A stretch of DNA of 64,000 bases, from positions 1 to 64,000 of the IMG/VR virus record IMGVR_UViG_3300015207_000465, one strand, 5' to 3'. The translations under genes were made by a program, and so were the position numbers. Positions 2,792-62,308 of this stretch are shown piece by piece. The notes below the pieces were generated by a model that was given only the letters and a program-made list of their open reading frames with translations, did not search any database and was not told where the DNA came from. This stretch comes from a virus (taxonomy: Duplodnaviria > Caudoviricetes). Within the stretch, counting starts at the first letter, position 1; every line of letters starts with the position of its first letter.

Positions 2792-3508
2792 TTATAGAAT
2801 ATGGCTGAAATTTTCGCCGTTCAACGTCATTTCTCCGTCATACTTTATCTTGACTAAGCAAAATTGCCCCGGAGTAGCAACGGCCATAAGGTCATTACCA
2901 GTGATGCCTCTTGCTTCTTCAAGCTGGGAGTAGCCTTTGCGTTTGCTTGCACTCTTGACAGCGGTTTCAAATTCGGCCTTTGCCTTTTGAAGCTCAAGCC
3001 ATTTTTCATAAACGGCCTTGCGATTGTCGCTATCAATAAACATACAAAACATACTCTCCAGATATTCAGTGTGCCGGGGGTCGATTGTTATATTTCCGTC
3101 CTCAACGTGATAATAATTAAAATCAATCATTGAGCTTGCATCGTTGCGCCTACGCCATTCAACAATCTTATCGGCTTGGTTTCCGACAGCTTTGTTATAC
3201 TCATCGGTGCGCTCTTTTTTATAGAGGTCGGAGATAGTGCGCAAAAGCGTTGTAGGCAATCCTTTGAGCGCATCGCCAACGTGCTTTTCGGCGGTCATTC
3301 CCTCTAAGTTCTCGCCACTGTATAAGCGTTTGATTAGCTCATCGGTTGGCTCTATTCCGAGTGTCTTGAGGCCGTCTGCTAACTTTTGCAGTTCCTTTTG
3401 CATCCAAAGGTAGCGTCTTGCCCAGTTATCAAATTCCGGGTCTTTATGTACTAAAATACGTCTTTCCATTTTGTTAGTGATGTTTGGTCGCTGATTATTT
3501 TTTTCCAT
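2792..3508 (-). CDS. Hypothetical protein
   Basis: 238-aa ORF in the operon. Confidence 0.7.
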   Translation of the reverse strand: MEKNNQRPNITNKMERRILVHKDPEFDNWARRYLWMQKELQKLADGLKTLGIEPTDELIKRLYSGENLEGMTAEKHVGDALKGLPTTLLRTISDLYKKERTDEYNKAVGNQADKIVEWRRRNDASSMIDFNYYHVEDGNITIDPRHTEYLESMFCMFIDSDNRKAVYEKWLELQKAKAEFETAVKSASKRKGYSQLEEARGITGNDLMAVATPGQFCLVKIKYDGEMTLNGENFSHIL

Positions 3509-15027: not shown

Positions 15028-15129
15028 GAAAGAATAGCTCAGTTGGCAGAGCGGACATCAGTAAAACGGGGCAACCATGGAAATCCTCGTGGGGATGTCA
15101 GGTCGGTGGTTCGAGTCCATCTTCTTTCA
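15028..15129 (+). ncRNA. tRNA-like RNA with expanded (34-nt) anticodon loop
   Basis: Acceptor GAAAGAA/TTCTTTC, D arm GCTC/GAGC, stem GACATC/GATGTC, T arm GGTGG-TTCGAGT-CCATC. Confidence 0.75.
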
Positions 15130-24564: not shown

Positions 24565-24851
24565 AATGGATATACACCAAATGCCACTCTTTTGAAGAAG
24601 CAAATGCCCTCGGTCATTTTATAATTGGCAAAGGCTACATGGGTGTTCAGAATGATAGCTATCGGTATTGCGAAGACCACATTAGATGGGCTTTGGAAAC
24701 AAATATCCGACACCGGCTGGAGTTTTGTTTTGTCGGTGTAAATGGTTGCCAGCTTGTAGTTGGAGCGCATAAAAAGGCGATGCGTAAGCAAGGCGCGATG
24801 CGCTACATAGAGAAAGAGCGAGTGTTTAAGGAATTAATAAGCGAGATATGA
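24561..24851 (+). CDS. Hypothetical protein
   Basis: ATGA-coupled ORF. Confidence 0.7.
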   Translation: MKWIYTKCHSFEEANALGHFIIGKGYMGVQNDSYRYCEDHIRWALETNIRHRLEFCFVGVNGCQLVVGAHKKAMRKQGAMRYIEKERVFKELISEI

Positions 24852-40309: not shown

Positions 40310-40382
40310 CGCGGGTTGGAGCAGTTGGAAGCTCGCCAGTTTAACTTGCTGGAGGTCGTGGGTTCGAGTCCTACACCCGCCA
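40310..40382 (+). tRNA. Initiator-type tRNA body with anticodon AAC (would read GUU)
   Basis: CGCGGGT/ACCCGCC acceptor with C1xC72 mismatch, A73, D stem GAGC/GCTC (A11:U24), stem CCAGT/GCTGG, loop TTAACTT, T arm GTGGG-TTCGAGT-CCTAC; CCA not encoded. Confidence 0.88.
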
Positions 40383-43068: not shown

Positions 43069-43695
43069 GTTAAGAGGCCTAAGTTTAAAAAAAGTTTCAA
43101 CGAAGAGTTGAATCGTAAGTTGTCGGATGGTGGAATAAAACATCATCCCGATGGTTTATATCCTGCTGGGGTGGGTGAATTCCATAAAGCAATTAAAATT
43201 GCTAAAAGAAATAATGGTAATGGGTGGATGGTAGAGAAAAAGGGCAGGGGAAGTTATTCCGGGCTACGCCTCTTTATGTCTAAAGATAAGAAGATGGGAT
43301 TTGCCTTAGATGGCGATAATATAGTGTCTGTCTTTAGCTGTAAGCCAAAAGGAAGTAATGCGATGGGTAAAATTATCCCATTTGCAGTAGCCATGGGTGG
43401 CAGAAGATTGGACTGTTTCGCAGGTGGTCTTCAAAATCTTTATGCCAAGTATGGTGCGCGTCCAACAGGAAAAACACATTTCGACGAGCGATATGCGCCT
43501 CCCGGGTGGGATGGAAAGTCTCATCATCCAATTGTAGCGATGAGATTGCCAAACTCCCTTGAAAAATTGATTAAGGCTTACAACCCAAGACAAAAAGTCA
43601 GCCTTAACGGGGTGCGGTATTATTCTTCGTATAATGACATGGAAAATTCAGCGAGAAAGCGTGGTGCAAGGAATAATATTAAACAAAGCTCTTAG
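43069..43695 (+). CDS. GNAT-like domain protein; proposed GTT start
   Basis: DNIVSVFS..AVAMGGRRLDCF...L..LY.KYG..P....FDERYAPPGWD; frame open from 43060; first ATG far inside; TTG 43108 is the alternative start. Confidence 0.65.
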   Translation, partial: VKRPKFKKSFNEELNRKLSDGGIKHHPDGLYPAGVGEFHKAIKIAKRNNGNGWMVEKKGRGSYSGLRLFMSKDKKMGFALDGDNIVSVFSCKPKGSNAMGKIIPFAVAMGGRRLDCFAGGLQNLYAKYGARPTGKTHFDERYAPPGWDGKSHHPIVAMRLPNSLEKLIKAYNPRQKVSLNGVRYYSSYNDMENSARKRGARNNIKQSS

Positions 43696-44500: not shown

Positions 44501-44701
44501 GTTAGACGCAGGAAAACAAGAGAACAAATAGAAGCCCAAGCATCGCGCCTCAGTGAAGCTAATTGGCGCAGGCGTAATGTGTGGGAAAGCGGCACCGCAT
44601 CCCGTAGGGCAAAAGAGTCACGCGACCGATTGATAGATAAAGCCGAGAAGCGTGCTTTAGTTCAAAACGGATTAAGAATGGCGACCGGGGGGGGCAAATA
44701 G
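44501..44701 (+). CDS. Small Arg-rich protein (66 aa, not in ORF track); proposed GTT start
   Basis: (V)RRRKTREQIEAQASRLSEANWRRRNVWESG...; in-frame TAA at 44477; no ATG/GTG/TTG until codon 27; A-rich leader. Confidence 0.6.
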   Translation, partial: VRRRKTREQIEAQASRLSEANWRRRNVWESGTASRRAKESRDRLIDKAEKRALVQNGLRMATGGGK

Positions 44702-44720: not shown

Positions 44721-44790
44721 TGCGTGTTAGAGAAGCGGTCATCTCGCCGTCATCAGACGGAAATCGCAAGTTCGACTCTTGCACACGCAG
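44721..44790 (+). ncRNA. tRNA-like RNA with 4-nt anticodon loop
   Basis: TGCGTGT/ACACGCA, GAGA/TCTC, CCGTC-ATCA-GACGG, GCAAG-TTCGACT-CTTGC. Confidence 0.75.
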
Positions 44791-44824
44791 CATAGAAAAA
44801 TAACGGAATTTCATTATCACGACA

Positions 44825-45496
44825 ATGCCGAAGAAGCGAATTAGCAACAAGACACCGCGCAAGCCCAAGGCAACACCCTCGTTTGACTACGAGAGTGAGG
44901 AATTTCTGTCGCGCATTGATGCACTTGCTTTTGAGGGCTTTTACAATACGGAAATCGCTGACGAATTGAACATTAGCCGATACGAATTGGAAATGGCGAT
45001 AAGTCAGTGCGAAAAATTGCGCAACACGATAGCGTCTGCCCGCGAGCGTGCGCGTGCGCAAGGCGCGGAAATGCCATCACCCGCTATGTTCGCAAAGGTC
45101 TGGGCTGAATGTAACGGAAAGCGCACCCTACTGATGAAAAAGTTCGGAATTGGCTGGACTAAACTGCAATCGTGGTTGGCGCAAGAGCCGATATTCGTAG
45201 ATATAATGGCGGAACGCGACCTTGAATTTCTTGAGCAGATTGATGTCGCCAGCCGCATCCTTGCATTGGGCGGTGTGAAAGGAAAGGACAACTTTGCGGG
45301 ATGGAGTCGCTACCCCGACAGTTGGATGATGCGCTATCATCTGAATACACTCGGAAGACGATACGGCTATGGCGAGAATCCTATCCAACAGGAAGCCGAA
45401 GACACCGACATTCCGAAGAATATTGAACAAGGAATCGATATTGAAAGCTGGATTAAGCAGGAAGTGGAACAAAAGAAGCGTGATACGGAACAATGA
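44825..45496 (+). CDS. Terminase small subunit (putative)
   Basis: HTH segments; ATGA-coupled to TerL. Confidence 0.7.
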   Translation: MPKKRISNKTPRKPKATPSFDYESEEFLSRIDALAFEGFYNTEIADELNISRYELEMAISQCEKLRNTIASARERARAQGAEMPSPAMFAKVWAECNGKRTLLMKKFGIGWTKLQSWLAQEPIFVDIMAERDLEFLEQIDVASRILALGGVKGKDNFAGWSRYPDSWMMRYHLNTLGRRYGYGENPIQQEAEDTDIPKNIEQGIDIESWIKQEVEQKKRDTEQ

Positions 45497-47745
45497 TAAT
45501 CAACCATGAGATATATTACCCCCTTTATACCGACAAGGAGCATTTCATCATCCTTGTTACGGGCGGTCGTGGCTCTGGTAAATCATTCGGAATCGGCGGC
45601 TTCATAGAACGCCTATCGTTTGAATTGAAGCGCAAAGGCTATTCCAATTCAGACACCGATAAGATAGTCCACAACGTACTTTACACGCGCTACACGATGA
45701 CGAGTGCCAGCATTTCCGTTATCCCCGAGTTCTTGGAAAAGATAGACCTTGACGGCACGGGCAGGTATTTCCGCACAACGAAATCGGATATTGTCAACAA
45801 GATGACCGGCAGCCGCATCATGTTCCGCGGCATCAAGACATCATCGGGCAATCAAACCGCCAAGCTGAAATCAATTCATGGCATCACAACCTTTGTATGC
45901 GACGAAGCGGAAGAATGGACTTCTGACCGCGAGTTTGAAACAATCGCCTTTTCCATCCGTCAGCCGGGTATCCAAAATAGGATTATCATCATAATGAACC
46001 CGACCGACAGTAATCATTTCATCTATCAGAAATACATCAAGGATACGCACCGGATTGAGTATTTTGACGGATTCCCCGTGCAGATTTCCACGCATCCGCA
46101 AGTGCTTCACATCCACACTACATATCTTGACAACAAAGCCAATCTATCGGAAGAGTTCATCAAGTCTGCACAGGAGATGAAAGAGCGCGACCCGGAACGG
46201 TACGCCCACATCTTCATGGGCAGATGGGCAGACGTAGCCGAGGGTGCGGTCTTCAAGAAATGGGGCATCGTCAAAGAATTTCCGAAAAACTGCAAACGTG
46301 TGGCCCGCGGTCTTGACTTTGGATATACCAACGATGTCAGCGCGTGCGTGAAATGCGGCATCATCGGAAACGACCTTTACATCGACGAACAATTCTTCAA
46401 GTCCGGGATGCTTTCTTCCGAGCTGATAAAAGCACTGCGCGAAGATGATTCTTTCGTCTACGCCGACAGTGCCGACCCGCGACTGATTGACGAAATCGCC
46501 CTCGGTGGCGTAATCATCTACCCGGTTGCGAAGCCAGCCGGAAGCATCATCGCCGGCATAGAAAAGATGAAATCGTTTGACAACATCTTCATCACGGAAC
46601 GCTCGCTGAATGTTCAGGACGAGTTCAGAAATTATGTGTGGGCGAAAGACAAAGATGGTAACTACATCAACGTGCCGGAAGACAGATTCAACCACTGCTT
46701 TACAGGCGATACACTAATCATGACAACAAAGGGACAAATACCCATCTCGGAAATAACCACAAATGACTATGTGCTAACATCAAATGGTTGTAAAAGAGTA
46801 GAAAACACATTTAATAATGGACTCAAGAAGATATTGCATATTCGGTTGATTTTTGCTAATTTTGTAGTTGAGTTAAAAGGGACACCAGACCATAAAATAA
46901 AGACAGTTGATGGATGGAAACAACTACAAGAATTGACAAAAGGGGATGTGCTATACTTGTGCAAACCTTTAATGGAAAGGAGTACTCGCTCTATCCCGGA
47001 GAAAGATACTTCTCGCGAGGATGTAAGCGATTACACCGCGTCGTCTGGGAGTATTATTACGGTGCAATCCCCAAAGGGTGTCACATCCACCACAAAGACG
47101 GTGATACCCACAATAACGAAATCGGAAACCTCGAAATCGTGGAGTGTAAAAAACACCTATCGCTACATGCTGAAGAGCACAACGACAATCCTGAAATGCT
47201 TGCCGAGCTGCGTGATAGAATGGATTATGCCAGAGGGTATGCAAATAAATGGCATCGTTCAGAAGAAGGCATCGAATGGCATAGAAAACACGGCAAAGAG
47301 GTGGCAGAGAATCTTGAGCCGATTGAATTTACGTGCCAATGGTGTGGAAAGAAGTTTATGTCCAAGCCATGTGGAGCTAACAAATTCTGCTCAAACGGAT
47401 GTAAAACGAAGTTCAGATACCATTCCGGTATTGACAACGAAACAAGAATTTGCAAGCAATGCGGCAAAGAGTTTGTCGCAAACAAATACTCACGAACTTA
47501 CTATTGCTCCCGGCGATGCTCGGGATTGCATAGCGCAGCCGTGCGTCCTGAAAGGGATAGAGATAGTAGCGGAAAATACCGCTAAAGTATACGACATACA
47601 GGTTGCTGACATACACGAATATTTTGCAAATGGAATACTCGTGCATAATTGTGTCGATGCCTCTCGCTACTATGTCTTGGGCTGCATCCTTGGCAAAATA
47701 CTCAAGCCGAAGAATGTAAAGAAATCTGATTTAGGAATATTCTAA
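45493..47745 (+). CDS. terL: Terminase large subunit (PBSX type) containing an intein
   Basis: TGGRGSGKS, CDEAEE, MNP, GLDFGY, ADSADP, and NH|CVDASRY split by the intein; spliced length 432 aa. Confidence 0.95.
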   Translation: MIINHEIYYPLYTDKEHFIILVTGGRGSGKSFGIGGFIERLSFELKRKGYSNSDTDKIVHNVLYTRYTMTSASISVIPEFLEKIDLDGTGRYFRTTKSDIVNKMTGSRIMFRGIKTSSGNQTAKLKSIHGITTFVCDEAEEWTSDREFETIAFSIRQPGIQNRIIIIMNPTDSNHFIYQKYIKDTHRIEYFDGFPVQISTHPQVLHIHTTYLDNKANLSEEFIKSAQEMKERDPERYAHIFMGRWADVAEGAVFKKWGIVKEFPKNCKRVARGLDFGYTNDVSACVKCGIIGNDLYIDEQFFKSGMLSSELIKALREDDSFVYADSADPRLIDEIALGGVIIYPVAKPAGSIIAGIEKMKSFDNIFITERSLNVQDEFRNYVWAKDKDGNYINVPEDRFNHCFTGDTLIMTTKGQIPISEITTNDYVLTSNGCKRVENTFNNGLKKILHIRLIFANFVVELKGTPDHKIKTVDGWKQLQELTKGDVLYLCKPLMERSTRSIPEKDTSREDVSDYTASSGSIITVQSPKGVTSTTKTVIPTITKSETSKSWSVKNTYRYMLKSTTTILKCLPSCVIEWIMPEGMQINGIVQKKASNGIENTAKRWQRILSRLNLRANGVERSLCPSHVELTNSAQTDVKRSSDTIPVLTTKQEFASNAAKSLSQTNTHELTIAPGDARDCIAQPCVLKGIEIVAENTAKVYDIQVADIHEYFANGILVHNCVDASRYYVLGCILGKILKPKNVKKSDLGIF
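46696..47649 (+). mobile_element. Intein (318 aa) in the TerL nuclease motif
   Basis: Block A CFTGDTLI, block B GTPDHKI, block F VYDIQV..HEYFANG, block G ILVHN followed by Cys+1. Confidence 0.93.
46914..47585 (+). CDS. HNH homing endonuclease with two C-terminal Zn fingers, nested out of frame in the intein
   Basis: LHRVVWE..G.IPKG.HIHHKDGD..NN.I.NL; CQWC..FCSNGC and CKQC..YCSRRC. Confidence 0.88.
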   Translation: METTTRIDKRGCAILVQTFNGKEYSLYPGERYFSRGCKRLHRVVWEYYYGAIPKGCHIHHKDGDTHNNEIGNLEIVECKKHLSLHAEEHNDNPEMLAELRDRMDYARGYANKWHRSEEGIEWHRKHGKEVAENLEPIEFTCQWCGKKFMSKPCGANKFCSNGCKTKFRYHSGIDNETRICKQCGKEFVANKYSRTYYCSRRCSGLHSAAVRPERDRDSSGKYR

Positions 47746-47756
47746 CACTACCAGAT

Positions 47757-49214
47757 ATGACAAACTATTTACAGCAACTCTTAACTTACTTCCGAAACCT
47801 TACGCTGAATAGCGTTGGGGTTAATCGCACACTTTATCAGTTACTTCAAGACAAGGACATCAACCGCGCCCTTGAAATGATGGAAAACCACGATGACGAG
47901 GTTGACCAAGCTATCAAGGAGTACAATCCGCAGACCCATGATGTTATGAAACGCCCTAACAAATTCCGAAAAGGCGAAGACCCATACATCACGGAAAAGC
48001 TACCGCGCACCCGCGCCCGCTACATCAACGAAATTGAGCTTTTCTTTCTCCTCGGCAATCCTATTGAATGGAAGAAAGAAGAGGGCGACGATGACGGCTA
48101 CACGCTTTACACGGATTTCTTGAAAGACCAGTATTTCAACTCGCGCATTAGACAGGCGAAACGCCTCGCCGGGTCGGAAACCGAATCAGCCCTTATCTGC
48201 CACATCTATCGCGACGATGATACCGGCGAGCGCAAAATTAAGATGAATGTCTTGGCGCGTTCCACCGGCTATCGTCTGCGTCCATTGTTCGATACGATTG
48301 GAAACCTTGCCGCCTTTGCCTACGGATACGTCACAAAAGAGGGCGGTCGCAGTGTTCAACACTGGGATTTCCAAACGTCAAAGATTTTGGCTTTCTGCAA
48401 AAAGTCCTCTATCGGCTGGGAGGTGGAAATATACCCCAATCCCACAAACAAAATCAACGTCATCTATTTCCGTCAGCCGAAAGCATGGGATGGCGCGGAA
48501 CAGCGCATCAACCGTGAGGAGATGCTTGACAGCAAAACCGGTGACACCAACAATTACTTCTCAGACCCCATCGCCGCCGCTTCCGCAGATGTCATTCAGT
48601 CTATGGTTGACCCCGCGAAACCCGGCAAGCTGATTCAGTTGACTGGCGAAAAGTCGCGGTTTGAATACATCAATCCGCCGCAGTCTTCGCAGACCCGCGA
48701 ATCGGAACAATCCAACCTTGAAAGGAGTATCCTTTTTGACACCTACACACCCAACTTTGATACCGAGGCTATGAAAGGCTTCGGAACATTATCCGGCGTG
48801 GCTATCCGCAACGCTTTCATCCTTGGCTACATAAAGCGTGACAACCGCAAGGAAATCTACGAAGAGCTTATCGGTCGCTTCCGCAACATCGTTATCGGAA
48901 TACTCATCTTTGAGCATCCTGACAAAAGGGCGGCTCTTGAGTCACTCAAAATCAAGTTTGAATTTGCGGAACCGTTCACTGCCGATAAACAAGCCAAATG
49001 GCAATCCATCGCCCAGTTGTTCCAAGCCGGTCTTGTTTCACTTGAAACCGCAGTAACAATGCTGTCGCTGACCGATGCGCCGGAAGAAGAAATCAACCGC
49101 CTGTTGAAAGCTGCAGAGCAGAAGCAAGAGCAGGATGCGCCAGCTTCCGAACCGGCAAAACAAGAACCGGCGATGCCTCTCGTTAGCGTTCCGCGCAACC
49201 CCATCTCCGCATAA
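47757..49214 (+). CDS. Portal protein (SPP1-like)
   Basis: Follows TerL; 485 aa; FLLGNPI, LSGVAIR, SLETAV; terminator-like hairpin at ~49238-49270. Confidence 0.85.
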   Translation: MTNYLQQLLTYFRNLTLNSVGVNRTLYQLLQDKDINRALEMMENHDDEVDQAIKEYNPQTHDVMKRPNKFRKGEDPYITEKLPRTRARYINEIELFFLLGNPIEWKKEEGDDDGYTLYTDFLKDQYFNSRIRQAKRLAGSETESALICHIYRDDDTGERKIKMNVLARSTGYRLRPLFDTIGNLAAFAYGYVTKEGGRSVQHWDFQTSKILAFCKKSSIGWEVEIYPNPTNKINVIYFRQPKAWDGAEQRINREEMLDSKTGDTNNYFSDPIAAASADVIQSMVDPAKPGKLIQLTGEKSRFEYINPPQSSQTRESEQSNLERSILFDTYTPNFDTEAMKGFGTLSGVAIRNAFILGYIKRDNRKEIYEELIGRFRNIVIGILIFEHPDKRAALESLKIKFEFAEPFTADKQAKWQSIAQLFQAGLVSLETAVTMLSLTDAPEEEINRLLKAAEQKQEQDAPASEPAKQEPAMPLVSVPRNPISA

Positions 49215-53729: not shown

Positions 53730-55013
53730 TCATTGTTGTTTGATTTCAGCAGTCACGCCGTTAGTGTCGGTCACGTCTGCCGGGTTAATCGTTTTTGCGG
53801 TATCGGGATTTTCAGCAGCCACCGACAATCCTAAATCGCAGAAGCCCTTGCAAGCTCCGCGATAGCCGTTGAAAAATTCAGTGGCGGTCATGCGTCGCTT
53901 GTTCGGCATCTGCAATTCAAGTACGGAAAGAAGATTGTCGCCACAGGCGATGTATAGCTTTCGGTCTTGCCAGAATAGCTCGCCGGGCGCATGGTGGCCA
54001 CGCGGTATGTCGGTCTTTTCCGTTCTGAAAATCTTGACGCTCATGGCCTGCTTTCCAAGCATGGCCAGTGAAGTCCAAGCTGATGGGATTGGAGTAAGTG
54101 CGCGTATGAAGTCATAGACGTAATCGGCGGGCTTGAGCCACGGAATGATGCAGTCCTTGCGATGTAGCTTTGGCGCGTAGCATGGCTGGATGAAGTCACA
54201 GATAAGCTCCGACTGAGGAATGGGGTTGCATGAATGGGCTATGCGCTGGATTGCATCGTCTATCATTTCCGCGCCGGCAATGCGTAGCTTGATGTGAACG
54301 TCTTCCGCGTTATCATCTTCATCAATGCCGATGGCAAGATTGTTTATGATGCCGCCGGTGTCGATTTTGTCTTCAAGCATGAACGTTGTCACGCCGGTCA
54401 TGGCATTACCATCCTTGATTGCGGATGCGATGGTGGAAGCACCGCGATACATGGGCAGCATAGATGAGTGGAGGTTGATTGTACCCCACGACGGAATGGT
54501 GTATAGCGCACGTGGCAGTATTCTGAACTCCACTACTACGCCGAGCGTCGCATGAAGATTGTGGATGTGCCGCAGAAATCTATTAGAGTCAAGTTTCCGT
54601 GGTTGAAAAACAAGGATGCCCATAGATTCGGCATAAACCTTGACCGCAGATGGCCGCAGTTTCTTGCCACGCCCGCACGGTTTATCTTCCATAGTTACGA
54701 CTGCCGCGACATCATATCCGTTTTCAACAAGCATTTTTAGCGTGGGAAGCGCAAACTGCCCATTGCCGAAGAATATGATGCGTATTCCCTTGCGTGATAC
54801 AGGCTTGTCAAAATCACGTTCCGGGTATGAAACAATATCAGTTTCGTCAACAATTACATAACCGCCGGATTTCTTCAATCGCAGAAAGTAAGAGCCATCA
54901 TCTTTTGGGTATAAGATTTTGGCTTCCGTAAAAATACCGCCCCCATCATTACCGTGCAGGAGTCTGCTTGGAATTTGGACTGTCTGCCCGACGCGATAAA
55001 GAGGTGTTTTCAT
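53730..55013 (-). CDS. fmt: Phage-encoded methionyl-tRNA formyltransferase homolog with extra N-terminal domain
   Basis: IIFFG..FA, VVT..DKP.GRG.KL, INLHSSMLPMYRGA, TGVTTF..IDTG, YAPKL, QMPNKRRM; ATG 55013 coupled to the XRE stop. Confidence 0.92.
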   Translation of the reverse strand: MKTPLYRVGQTVQIPSRLLHGNDGGGIFTEAKILYPKDDGSYFLRLKKSGGYVIVDETDIVSYPERDFDKPVSRKGIRIIFFGNGQFALPTLKMLVENGYDVAAVVTMEDKPCGRGKKLRPSAVKVYAESMGILVFQPRKLDSNRFLRHIHNLHATLGVVVEFRILPRALYTIPSWGTINLHSSMLPMYRGASTIASAIKDGNAMTGVTTFMLEDKIDTGGIINNLAIGIDEDDNAEDVHIKLRIAGAEMIDDAIQRIAHSCNPIPQSELICDFIQPCYAPKLHRKDCIIPWLKPADYVYDFIRALTPIPSAWTSLAMLGKQAMSVKIFRTEKTDIPRGHHAPGELFWQDRKLYIACGDNLLSVLELQMPNKRRMTATEFFNGYRGACKGFCDLGLSVAAENPDTAKTINPADVTDTNGVTAEIKQQ

Positions 55014-55279
55014 CGCGGCGTGGCGGTTTTGATGTCGATACGTGCGCCGCACTGCGGGCAGATGATTGTTGCCGGGTTGGGTGCGAGGTAGTCTGTGAAT
55101 AGTGATGCAACTGGTACGTCAAGAGCTTCCGCTATCTTTTCAAGGGTAGAGATGTTGGGGCTATTCTTCTCGTTCACGATACTGCCAAGAGTCTGGGGAG
55201 CTATATTCATTTTTTCGGCAAGACTTTTCAGTGTCATACCTTTGGCGGCAACGATTGCTTTAATTCTGAATTTTGACAT
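55010..55279 (-). CDS. XRE-family HTH regulator with zinc ribbon
   Basis: TLKSLAEKM..PNISTLEKIAEALDVPV; CPQCG. Confidence 0.87.
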   Translation of the reverse strand: MSKFRIKAIVAAKGMTLKSLAEKMNIAPQTLGSIVNEKNSPNISTLEKIAEALDVPVASLFTDYLAPNPATIICPQCGARIDIKTATPR

Positions 55280-60779: not shown

Positions 60780-61211
60780 ATGAAGAATGACATCTCACCC
60801 AACAAGGAAACGGTTGTCTTCGGCAATGATTCCGCAGTAATCCGTAAGTACATCAGCGGTATCCCCGGTGGTCGTACTCTGGACTGCACCGGTTTCAAAG
60901 AAGACACCGTGCTGGCCGGCCACGTCATCATCAAGAAGACTGACGGCAAGTATGCCCCCATGCCCGTTAAGGCAGCAGTTCCGGCATCAGGCGAAACAGC
61001 CGCAACGCCCGCGAGCTACGACTCGCTTCCCGCCGGCGCAACCTACGTGGGCATCCTTTATCGCTCCATCAGCGTAAAGAACCCCGCAGCTTCCATCATG
61101 TACGATGGCGTCGTAAACGACAAATTAGTTCCCTATCCCATGACAAGCATCTTGACCGCGTTCAAGACCGCTTGCCCTCACATCATTTTTGAACAGGACG
61201 AGGAGGCCTAA
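60780..61211 (+). CDS. Head decoration-like protein
   Basis: DS.VIRKY..GIPGGRTLD..AGHVII; directly upstream of the capsid gene. Confidence 0.65.
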   Translation: MKNDISPNKETVVFGNDSAVIRKYISGIPGGRTLDCTGFKEDTVLAGHVIIKKTDGKYAPMPVKAAVPASGETAATPASYDSLPAGATYVGILYRSISVKNPAASIMYDGVVNDKLVPYPMTSILTAFKTACPHIIFEQDEEA

Positions 61212-61219
61212 GAATCAGA

Positions 61220-62308
61220 GTTAATCAGTCATTTTATTTCGATTACGCAAAGCGTTTCTTCCCCGGCCTTGTGCTGGCTATCGTAGAACGCCTCAACGAG
61301 AAGCGTGCCAATTCCGCTCTCACCTACCTTTACAAAGAAAAACTTCGCCCGCAGTTTTCGCTTGATGGCCGCTGGGCTTCCATCCTTGCGGAATACACCC
61401 GCGTAGCCGCCGACGTTGTGGCACTTGACTCCGAGCTTCCGCTCAAGAGCCGTGACACACTGGAGGTTGCTTCCGGCACAATTCCCAAAATCGGTATGAA
61501 GCTCTACCTGACCGAAAAGCAGATGAAAGACGTTGACTCGATGATTGCGCAGGGTGTTCCCCTCCAGACCATCATCGACAACATCTTCGCTGATACCCCC
61601 CGTTGCATCGAGGGCATCTGGGAGCGCATCGAAGACATCTTCCTTTCGGAGCTTTCGTCGGGTGTCGGCGTTTCCGAGCGCAACAACGGCACAGGTGTGC
61701 GCATCAACATGAATTTCTATGACGACAACCAGTTCGCTGTTTCCAAACTTTGGAGCAACACCGACGCAACTCCGCTTGACGACATCCAGAAACTTGTTGA
61801 CAAGTCCATTACCGACGCAAACACCATCATCGACGCATACGCTGACGACACCGCCCTCGGTCTTCTCTACAAGAACAAGCAGGTGCGTTCACAGTTCGCG
61901 TTCAATCAGGGCATCGCCATGACCGGTTCGACCACCGTGCCGGTGCTTGACTTTGCGAAGCTCCAGCAGATTTTCCTCACCAAGTGGAACATCAATCTGC
62001 ACCGCGTCGCCCGCCGTGTCAAGACCGAGCTTAACGGCGAAAAGAAAAACCATACCCCGTGGAAGACCGGAACAATTTCCTTTGTCTGCGATGAAGAGCT
62101 TGGCTCACTCGTATGGACTAACGTTGCCGAGGCTTCGCGCCCCGTTGAAGGCGTTGTCTATCAGACTGCCGACCAGTACATCCTCGCAAAGAAATATTCC
62201 AAGACCGACCCCCTCCGCGAGTTTACCGCTTCCGAGGCTATGGTTGTGCCTGTGTTGAACAACGTTGACCGCATCTACACGCTCGACACTCAGACAGTTC
62301 AGGAATGA
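61220..62308 (+). CDS. Major capsid protein; proposed GTT start (362 aa)
   Basis: Size and position; VAADVVALDSELPLKSRD..G.IPKIG; frame open from 61193 with no ATG near the 5' end; first GTG at 61271. Confidence 0.8.
   Translation, partial: VNQSFYFDYAKRFFPGLVLAIVERLNEKRANSALTYLYKEKLRPQFSLDGRWASILAEYTRVAADVVALDSELPLKSRDTLEVASGTIPKIGMKLYLTEKQMKDVDSMIAQGVPLQTIIDNIFADTPRCIEGIWERIEDIFLSELSSGVGVSERNNGTGVRINMNFYDDNQFAVSKLWSNTDATPLDDIQKLVDKSITDANTIIDAYADDTALGLLYKNKQVRSQFAFNQGIAMTGSTTVPVLDFAKLQQIFLTKWNINLHRVARRVKTELNGEKKNHTPWKTGTISFVCDEELGSLVWTNVAEASRPVEGVVYQTADQYILAKKYSKTDPLREFTASEAMVVPVLNNVDRIYTLDTQTVQE

Follow-up and report, generated by a model that had tools for sequence, protein, structure and literature searches.

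Here we report that the major capsid protein gene of a tailed phage (Duplodnaviria; Caudoviricetes) very likely starts at a GTT codon, most likely by means of an initiator transfer RNA (tRNA) with the anticodon AAC that is encoded by the phage itself. The gene was found in the first 64,000 nucleotides of the IMG/VR virus record IMGVR_UViG_3300015207_000465 (positions 1 to 64,000, hereafter the window), and the GTT in question, at 61220-61222, is the codon to which the initial methionine (M) of homologous capsid proteins is aligned. It lies outside the canonical start set (ATG, GTG, and TTG, to which translation table 11 adds ATT, ATC, ATA, and CTG). The features of the capsid locus are as follows:

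61220..62308, plus strand: major capsid protein gene (Phage_cap_E / phrog_29), 362 codons and a stop
61220..61222, plus strand: proposed true capsid start GTT, aligned with the ATG of homologues
61218..61223, plus strand: start context GA-GTT-A, constant among GTN-type capsid loci
61223..61270, plus strand: codons between GTT and GTG, encoding a protein segment conserved across the clade
61271..61273, plus strand: GTG picked by gene callers; no alternative start is conserved
61190..61192, plus strand: TGA closing the capsid frame, read from the sequence
60780..61211, plus strand: upstream head gene (phrog_38330, weak phrog_909), ending in TAA at 61209-61211 in a frame other than that of the capsid gene

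The encoded protein passes the curated threshold of Phage_cap_E (PF03864; 25.2 bits vs a cut-off of 22.9) and matches phrog_29, 'major head protein', with an E-value of 3.5e-31. The gene is set in a head module, with a terminase and an SPP1-type portal at 45493-49214, phrog_5824 and phrog_38330 upstream, DUF6706 downstream, and scaffold-like and decoration-like head genes nearby. Its frame is closed by the TGA at 61190-61192, after which nine codons (T G R G G L R I R) precede GTT 61220, and from there it reads V-NQSFYFDYAKRFFPGLV. The 16 codons at 61223-61270, between GTT and GTG 61271, encode NQSFYFDYAKRFFPGL. Neither ATG nor GTG nor TTG is present in the capsid frame from 61193 to 61270, where the sole table 11 start is ATC 61214, and GTG 61271 has been taken as the start both in the list of open reading frames (ORFs) of the window and in the public gene call P0002 (345 amino acids). 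The distance from the stop of the upstream gene is 8 nucleotides (nt) to GTT 61220 and 59 nt to GTG 61271. A sequence-only reading of the window had placed the closing TGA at 61190 and the upstream stop at 61211, had remarked that no canonical start is present where one is expected, and had proposed GTT 61220 as the true N-terminal codon; the coordinates and the absence of ATG, GTG, and TTG before GTG 61271 were confirmed in the sequence, and the proposal is supported by the homologues described below. Its remark that neighboring head genes use ATG close to the preceding stop is also borne out, considering that ATG opens the genes at 60780, 62305, 62647, 62994, 63304, and 63609, all of which overlap with the preceding stop or begin no more than 22 nt past it.

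Homologous proteins provide the most direct evidence for the position of the start. A search of a large public protein collection retrieved 711 capsid homologues. Among the 120 best homologue clusters, 62 open with M-x-x-S/T-[LFIV]-[YF] (such as MNQSFYFQF...YFP.LV), and their M falls exactly on the GTT of the window. In the other 58 clusters, nearly all of the closest relatives among them, the called proteins are 308-357 amino acids long (vs about 362) with scattered internal starts, which would be expected if the whole clade has no callable start. We then considered the DNA of 169 capsid loci (from IMG/VR, GTDB genomes, and metagenomes) and of two contigs fetched by protein identity. Counting the window, 28 loci have GTT as the codon aligned to M; L011 alone has GTA, and all others have ATG. 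ATG-type homologues with DNA account for 136 loci; their proteins open with M-[EN]-[KQ]-S-[LF]-Y-F, the M being aligned with GTT 61220, and in three loci the ATG sits one codon further upstream. On a tree from which the N-terminal columns were excluded, the GTN loci form one group that is separated by a single state change, and since its members range down to about 67% amino-acid identity, the codon has persisted despite deep divergence.

The codons that follow GTT evolve as coding sequence. Within the GTN group, synonymous change (pS) at codons 2-18 is 0.556 and nonsynonymous change (pN) is 0.194 (pN/pS 0.35), compared with 0.532 and 0.148 (pN/pS 0.28) for the remaining gene. Since pS and pN resemble those of the remainder, codons 2-18 are protein-coding, and these ratios indicate that purifying selection acts on the 17 disputed codons as it does on the remaining gene; conservation thus extends over the 17 codons before GTG and begins at GTT, as the sequence-only reading had anticipated. 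This makes it very unlikely that the capsid protein starts at GTG 61271 behind an untranslated leader of 17 codons, although GTG is a canonical start that is used in the ORF list and in P0002 and although the Phage_cap_E match, which spans residues 62-355 only and leaves the N-terminus outside, is silent on this point. The 17 codons are conserved as protein while their synonymous change is as high as in the remaining gene, and they match the N-terminus of ATG-type homologues residue by residue. Moreover, GTG 61271 itself is not conserved: the first canonical in-frame codon downstream falls at alignment column 16, 18, 21, 25, 44, 48, or 58 depending on the relative (codon 47 in L294), and no downstream canonical start is conserved among relatives in the alignment of the GTN clade. 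In most GTT-type relatives an in-frame TGA directly abuts the GTT (TGA-GTT), so that the open frame begins exactly at GTT. GTG 61271 is probably an ordinary internal valine codon.

The same relatives bear on ATC 61214, a rare table 11 start located two codons upstream of GTT. It is in frame, it is followed by AGA-GTT with GAGGAGG 7 nt upstream, and ATC-AGA-GTT is also present in the L010/L175 group. However, most relatives read ATC-TGA-GTT, or have no ATC at all (L011, L012, L205, L207, and L294). Because TGA comes after ATC in most relatives, ATC 61214 cannot be a conserved start, and its use as the start appears highly improbable. GAGGAGG (61200-61206) was considered as a Shine-Dalgarno sequence and rejected; it encodes the (Asp-)Glu-Glu-Ala end of the upstream gene and is GAAGAAG in L001.

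The gap of only 8 nt, together with the fact that in the window a -1 shift from the upstream frame enters the capsid frame, might suggest that the capsid protein is made by fusion, frameshifting, readthrough, or hopping from the upstream head gene. We consider such an origin exceedingly improbable, given that no slippery heptamer is present between 61193 and 61211 and that in-frame TGA abuts GTT in most loci. In L001, the upstream head gene is in the same frame as the capsid gene and two stops (TAA and TGA) lie between them; as this differs from the window, the frame relation of the two genes is not conserved. Recoding or readthrough of TGA was rejected as well, since the frame contains no upstream start and its relation to the frame of the upstream gene varies.

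There is likewise next to no chance that GTT arose from ATG through an error of sequencing or assembly, or that the gene is decaying in a dead prophage. The source record is indeed a provirus with an estimated completeness of 87%, but two changes are needed to turn ATG into GTT, the same codon recurs in 28 loci of separate assemblies (IMG/VR, GTDB, ENA, and JGI) that include two cultured isolates, and the capsid gene is intact and under purifying selection. An assembly error had been named in the sequence-only reading as one of the findings that would refute it. On the basis of the alignment, the tree, the pN/pS values, and the start-codon results, we regard an internal start, an assembly error, and gene decay as excluded.

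The ability of GTT to act as a start can be explained by a matching initiator-type tRNA with the anticodon AAC, which is located 21 kb upstream of the capsid GTT. A second component is also encoded in the window:

40310..40382, plus strand: initiator-type tRNA, anticodon AAC, loop UUAACUU (ARAGORN; Rfam RF00005, 47.2 bits)
53730..55052, minus strand: methionyl-tRNA formyltransferase homologue (Fmt; PF00551 and PF02911; TIGR00460)

The anticodon AAC of this tRNA, hereafter tRNA(AAC), is the exact complement of GUU, and ARAGORN labels the molecule tRNA-Val. Its anatomy is that of an initiator in two respects: position 1:72 is a C1-C72 mismatch, flagged as non-standard by Infernal, and the D stem is GAGC/GCUC with A11:U24, identical to host initiators. 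It does not have the CAU anticodon of formylmethionine initiator tRNA (tRNA-fMet). Of the features of an elongator tRNA-Val, the identity elements for valyl-tRNA synthetase (ValRS), as summarized in bioRxiv 10.1101/2021.05.25.445580, are present (A35, C36, and A73), while the elongator body and the Watson-Crick 1:72 pair are not. We compared tRNA(AAC) with three Muribaculaceae genomes that carry GTT-type prophages, namely Lepagella muris, Muribaculaceae Isolate-036, and one metagenome-assembled genome. Its best full-length non-phage matches are the tRNA-Met(CAT) initiators of these hosts, and the remaining host-genome matches are short stretches only, mostly in the T arm. The host tRNA-fMet sequences (L188, L189, and L194) share with the phage tRNA the acceptor CGCGGG...CCCGC(C/U)AC, A73, the D and T arms, and a 1:72 mismatch (C1-C72 or C1-U72 in hosts), and overall identity is 71-75% over about 80 nt. 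In contrast, the anticodon stem is CCAGU/GCUGG in the phage and UUGGG/CCCAA in hosts, which keep GGG/CCC, and the phage anticodon AAC lies in a UUAACUU loop where the hosts have CAU in CUCAUAA. Because the arms of the host initiator are kept and the whole anticodon stem-loop is replaced, tRNA 40310-40382 may be described as having the body of an initiator and the anticodon of a valine tRNA.

The phage Fmt passes the equivalog threshold of TIGR00460 (fmt; 217.6 bits vs a cut-off of 201.5) and is 40-44% identical to the hosts' own Fmt copies. As a separate observation, TIGR00460 aligns only from residue 91 of the 440-amino-acid GTG-start ORF (53730-55118, minus strand), and the phage Fmt has an N-terminal extension of ~55-90 residues that is absent from ordinary Fmt.

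The GTT start, tRNA(AAC), and Fmt co-occur. Among GTT-type records, tRNA(AAC) is present in G000, G001, G003, and G005 and in the prophage contigs of G011-G013, and is absent only from small fragments and from G002; the latter absence fits contig truncation because the position of Fmt puts the tRNA site beyond the contig end. No AAC-type copy was found in 35 ATG-type phage records, of which 16 have a completeness of 90% or more, nor in two ATG-type host genomes; one of these 35 records, G009, bears a divergent GAC-anticodon initiator tRNA instead. Every GTT-type record tested carries the phage Fmt, as do L294 and L295, where it is syntenic, and none was found in 19 ATG-type records.

A sequence context accompanies the GTN codon. 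G at -2, A at -1, and A at +4 are constant in all GTN-type capsid loci, whereas TA, AG, TT, AC, or TC is found ahead of the ATG in ATG-type homologues. The other GTT and GTC start candidates described below likewise have GA in front of them. The sequence-only reading had drawn attention to A at -3 as a start context; this A is indeed present in the window, but relatives have T, A, or C at that position, and the conserved element is GA at -2/-1. These observations also help to weigh the possibility that host tRNA-fMet weakly reads GUU and that tRNA(AAC) is an unrelated elongator supplement for valine codons, to which we assign only a small chance. Weak recognition of GUU by the native E. coli initiator has been reported (bioRxiv 10.1101/2021.05.25.445580), and both the lack of three G:C pairs in the phage tRNA and its ARAGORN label would suit an elongator. 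However, a very high output is required of a major capsid protein, the tRNA has an initiator-type body with the 1:72 mismatch and A11:U24, its nearest host tRNA is the initiator, and tRNA, Fmt, and GTT starts co-occur. In addition, the GA context suits U37/U38 of the phage tRNA, not A37/A38 of the host initiator.

Initiator-bodied tRNAs with a changed anticodon recur in other lineages. A pattern scan of IMG/VR yielded 87 stretches, and about 60 GAC-anticodon and about 18 AAC-anticodon initiator-bodied tRNAs were recognized in the 80 that were examined, with several different bodies. Candidate starts in GA-NNN-A context were then counted at ORF starts after dereplication, the tRNA-bearing and control loci being different genome regions:

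AAC-type loci: GTT 7, GTC 0, all candidates 72
GAC-type loci: GTT 11, GTC 8, all candidates 215
Control capsid neighborhoods: GTT 0, GTC 0, all candidates 97

The occurrence of GTT only in AAC-type loci and of both GTC and GTT in GAC-type loci is what wobble predicts, as A34 pairs with U whereas G34 accepts both C and U. In L100, an independent AAC lineage, two adjacent genes have AGGAGG or GGAGG 4-6 nt ahead of TGA-GTT; one of them, a ParB-like gene with AGGAGG 6 nt before GTT, matches positions 3-245 of the 245 in phrog_9353 with its residues 6-253. In G009, the provirus mentioned above that has an ATG-start capsid gene, the GAC tRNA is followed over the next 2.5 kb by three small Arg-rich ORFs with GA-GTC at their start (region L291:4233-6790; G009 positions 24756, 25609, and 26617), the last one with AGGAGG upstream. 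We also noticed in three GAC-type loci (L096, L101, and L155) a recurrent ORF of ~145 codons that opens with GA-GTA-A (VTKINGYARM...). GAC should not read GTA, and the true start of this ORF may be an ATG about 10 codons in.

The capsid gene does not appear to be the only user of GTT in this genome. The following genes are involved, the first two being given in genome positions:

Genome 64030: tail-tube-like gene with GTT start (phrog_14600, E-value 4.6e-64; GA-GTT context)
Genome 89368: small late gene with GTT start (phrog_38535; GA-GTT context)
43069..43695, plus strand: candidate GTT-start gene, aGA-GTT-AAG, 208 codons; the open frame begins 3 codons before GTT, and no canonical start precedes codon 13
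44501..44701, plus strand: candidate GTT-start small Arg-rich gene, aGA-GTT-AGA, VRRRKT..., proposed from its context and from similar genes elsewhere

Residues 8-180 of the product of gene 64030 match positions 4-176 of the 178 in the phrog_14600 profile, and its next canonical start is codon 31; relatives retain GA-GTT, and L012 has ATG at the aligned codon. For gene 89368, residues 2-77 match positions 2-77 of the 82 in phrog_38535, and the next canonical start is codon 24. Judged by these profile alignments, at least two further genes (64030 and 89368) start at GTT. Gene 43069 has a weak phrog_2563 match only, which leaves the N-terminus uncovered. Arg-rich genes like 44501 have a GTT start in AAC-type loci and a GTC or GTT start in GAC-type loci. 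The 44501 protein weakly matches the product of one GTC-start gene of G009 from residue 1 (E-value 0.024), and no homology was found between it and the product of the other GTC-start gene of that record. Beside this gene, ~20 nt past the stop of ORF 44501-44701 and ahead of the terminase region, lies a tRNA-like gene (44721-44791, plus strand) with a 6-base anticodon loop, which ARAGORN gives as tRNA-? with the anticodon 'tc' and which is not reported at the Rfam gathering threshold.

Taken together, initiation at GTT could proceed as follows. The phage tRNA(AAC) would pair with GUU in the ribosomal P site. It would be charged with valine by host ValRS, as expected from A35, C36, and A73, and the resulting Val-tRNA(AAC) would be formylated by the phage Fmt homologue, whose substrate specificity is predicted. 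The 1:72 mismatch and the formyl group would keep the tRNA off EF-Tu and direct it to the P site, and the capsid protein would begin with (formyl-)Val-Asn-Gln-Ser. The GA at -2/-1 would probably help site selection by pairing with the unusual U37 (perhaps also U38) of the tRNA loop. The same device would start genes 64030 and 89368 and probably also 43069 and 44501; we propose that synthesis of the most abundant virion proteins would therefore depend on the phage tRNA and Fmt. More generally, it is likely that one clade of Muribaculaceae phages has a start codon of its own, based on a valine-charged, formylated tRNA(AAC), a phage Fmt, and pairing of GA with U37/U38, such that virion production is gated on phage parts and is invisible to both host initiation and gene callers, and that the GAC versions found elsewhere use GUC or GUU likewise.

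Several points weigh against this interpretation. The sequences directly show where GTT lies and how it is conserved, how the tRNA is built, that the three parts occur together, and that the design recurs in other lineages; translation from GTT, charging of the tRNA with valine, its formylation, its use in the P site, the pairing of its loop, and the purpose of the system are inferred. The chief mechanistic doubt in our assessment is that tRNA(AAC) does not have the three consecutive G:C pairs in the anticodon stem that mark initiators (A29:U41, G30:C40, and U31-G39 are found instead), while E. coli reportedly needs these pairs for initiation in the P site (PMC6393288). Considering the single origin of the capsid clade, the co-occurrence of the parts within it represents co-inheritance and not independent association. 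The deep-branching relative L011 (IMGVR_UViG_3300035507_000185; 3001-3003) has GTA in the context TGA-GTA-AAT, which A34 should not be able to read; the tRNA of L011 was not recovered from the available 19-kb fragment, which contains no tRNA, and the IMG/VR pattern scan yielded three TAC hits, which proved not to be tRNAs, and no tRNA of this design with a UAC anticodon. The evidence for GTT starts at 43069 and 44501 is weak. Finally, GAGTTA is found at ORF starts at 5 of 33 sites genome-wide (binomial P 9e-5), but this test is not specific, as control triplets in the GA-NNN-A frame are equally frequent at ORF starts (GCC 7/39, CAT 5/53); the above comparison of tRNA-bearing loci with control loci tells more.

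Some other features of the window were observed in passing. A tRNA at 15028-15129 (plus strand; Rfam RF00005, 48.9 bits) has an anticodon-loop insert that measures 31 nt by ARAGORN and 35 nt by Rfam; with introns permitted, ARAGORN interprets the gene as tRNA-Pro(ggg) interrupted by a 31-nt intron. The large terminase gene (45493-47745, plus strand) has intein/Hint matches (PF14890, Hint_2, and PT-HINT) in its C-terminal half and probably encodes an intein-containing TerL. ARAGORN also predicts a 99-nt 'tRNA-Ala(tgc)' with a poor acceptor stem at 2624-2722, within a minus-strand ORF; because Rfam does not report it, this call is probably a false positive.

If initiation by tRNA(AAC) is confirmed, it would represent a natural reassignment of the start signal by a dedicated tRNA, which is not known from nature and which we found described only as a laboratory design, and it would offer synthetic biology a naturally optimized orthogonal initiation pair. 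Conceivably, such a system might serve to time late genes, to keep them silent in the lysogen, or to evade host attacks directed at the initiator tRNA. A practical consequence concerns public collections, where 58 of the 120 best capsid clusters (among P0002-P0117) are called from arbitrary internal codons, implying a systematic annotation error. Two cultured isolates, Lepagella muris NM04_E33 and Muribaculaceae Isolate-036, carry such prophages. In a full-text literature search that did not cover most subscription journals, we found laboratory designs only and no account of an initiator tRNA occurring in nature whose altered anticodon corresponds to start codons.

Several known systems may be compared with the one proposed here. 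Ordinary non-ATG starts (GTG, TTG, and the AUU of infC) also have a first triplet other than ATG; however, GTG, TTG, and AUU are one base off AUG and are read by tRNA-fMet, whereas GUU is two bases off and would have a dedicated tRNA. In the stop-codon recoding of gut phages (bioRxiv 10.1101/2021.08.26.457843; PMC9523058), a phage tRNA also alters the meaning of a codon in late or structural genes and standard callers break the genes. Here, by contrast, it is the start signal that would be reassigned; the tRNA involved belongs to the initiator class, and internal GUU codons are presumably still decoded as usual. Extended fourth-base pairing between initiator tRNA position 37 and mRNA position -1 is the subject of an earlier study (bioRxiv 10.1101/2022.05.02.490318; PMC10018350). 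In the phage, A at -1 stands opposite U37, and this predicted pair is inverted relative to that of the host, where A37 would pair with U at -1.

The closest parallel is an engineered E. coli initiator, i-tRNA(AAC), which initiates at GUU and is charged with valine by ValRS, Val and fVal N-termini having been detected (Hutvagner et al., bioRxiv 10.1101/2021.05.25.445580; follow-up in bioRxiv 10.64898/2025.12.21.695813). An initiator body, an AAC anticodon, and a GUU start are found in both systems. The phage version differs in being natural and conserved over a whole clade, in having no three-G:C stem and carrying U32, U37, and U38 in the loop, and in being accompanied by its own Fmt and by a conserved GA at -2/-1 of the start sites. 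Two causes were blamed for the low efficiency of the engineered tRNA: its rigid three-G:C stem acts as a negative determinant for ValRS, and Val-tRNA is formylated poorly, a defect that additional formyltransferase relieved (bioRxiv 10.1101/2021.05.25.445580). It is suggestive that the phage system appears to depart from the engineered one at exactly these two weak points.

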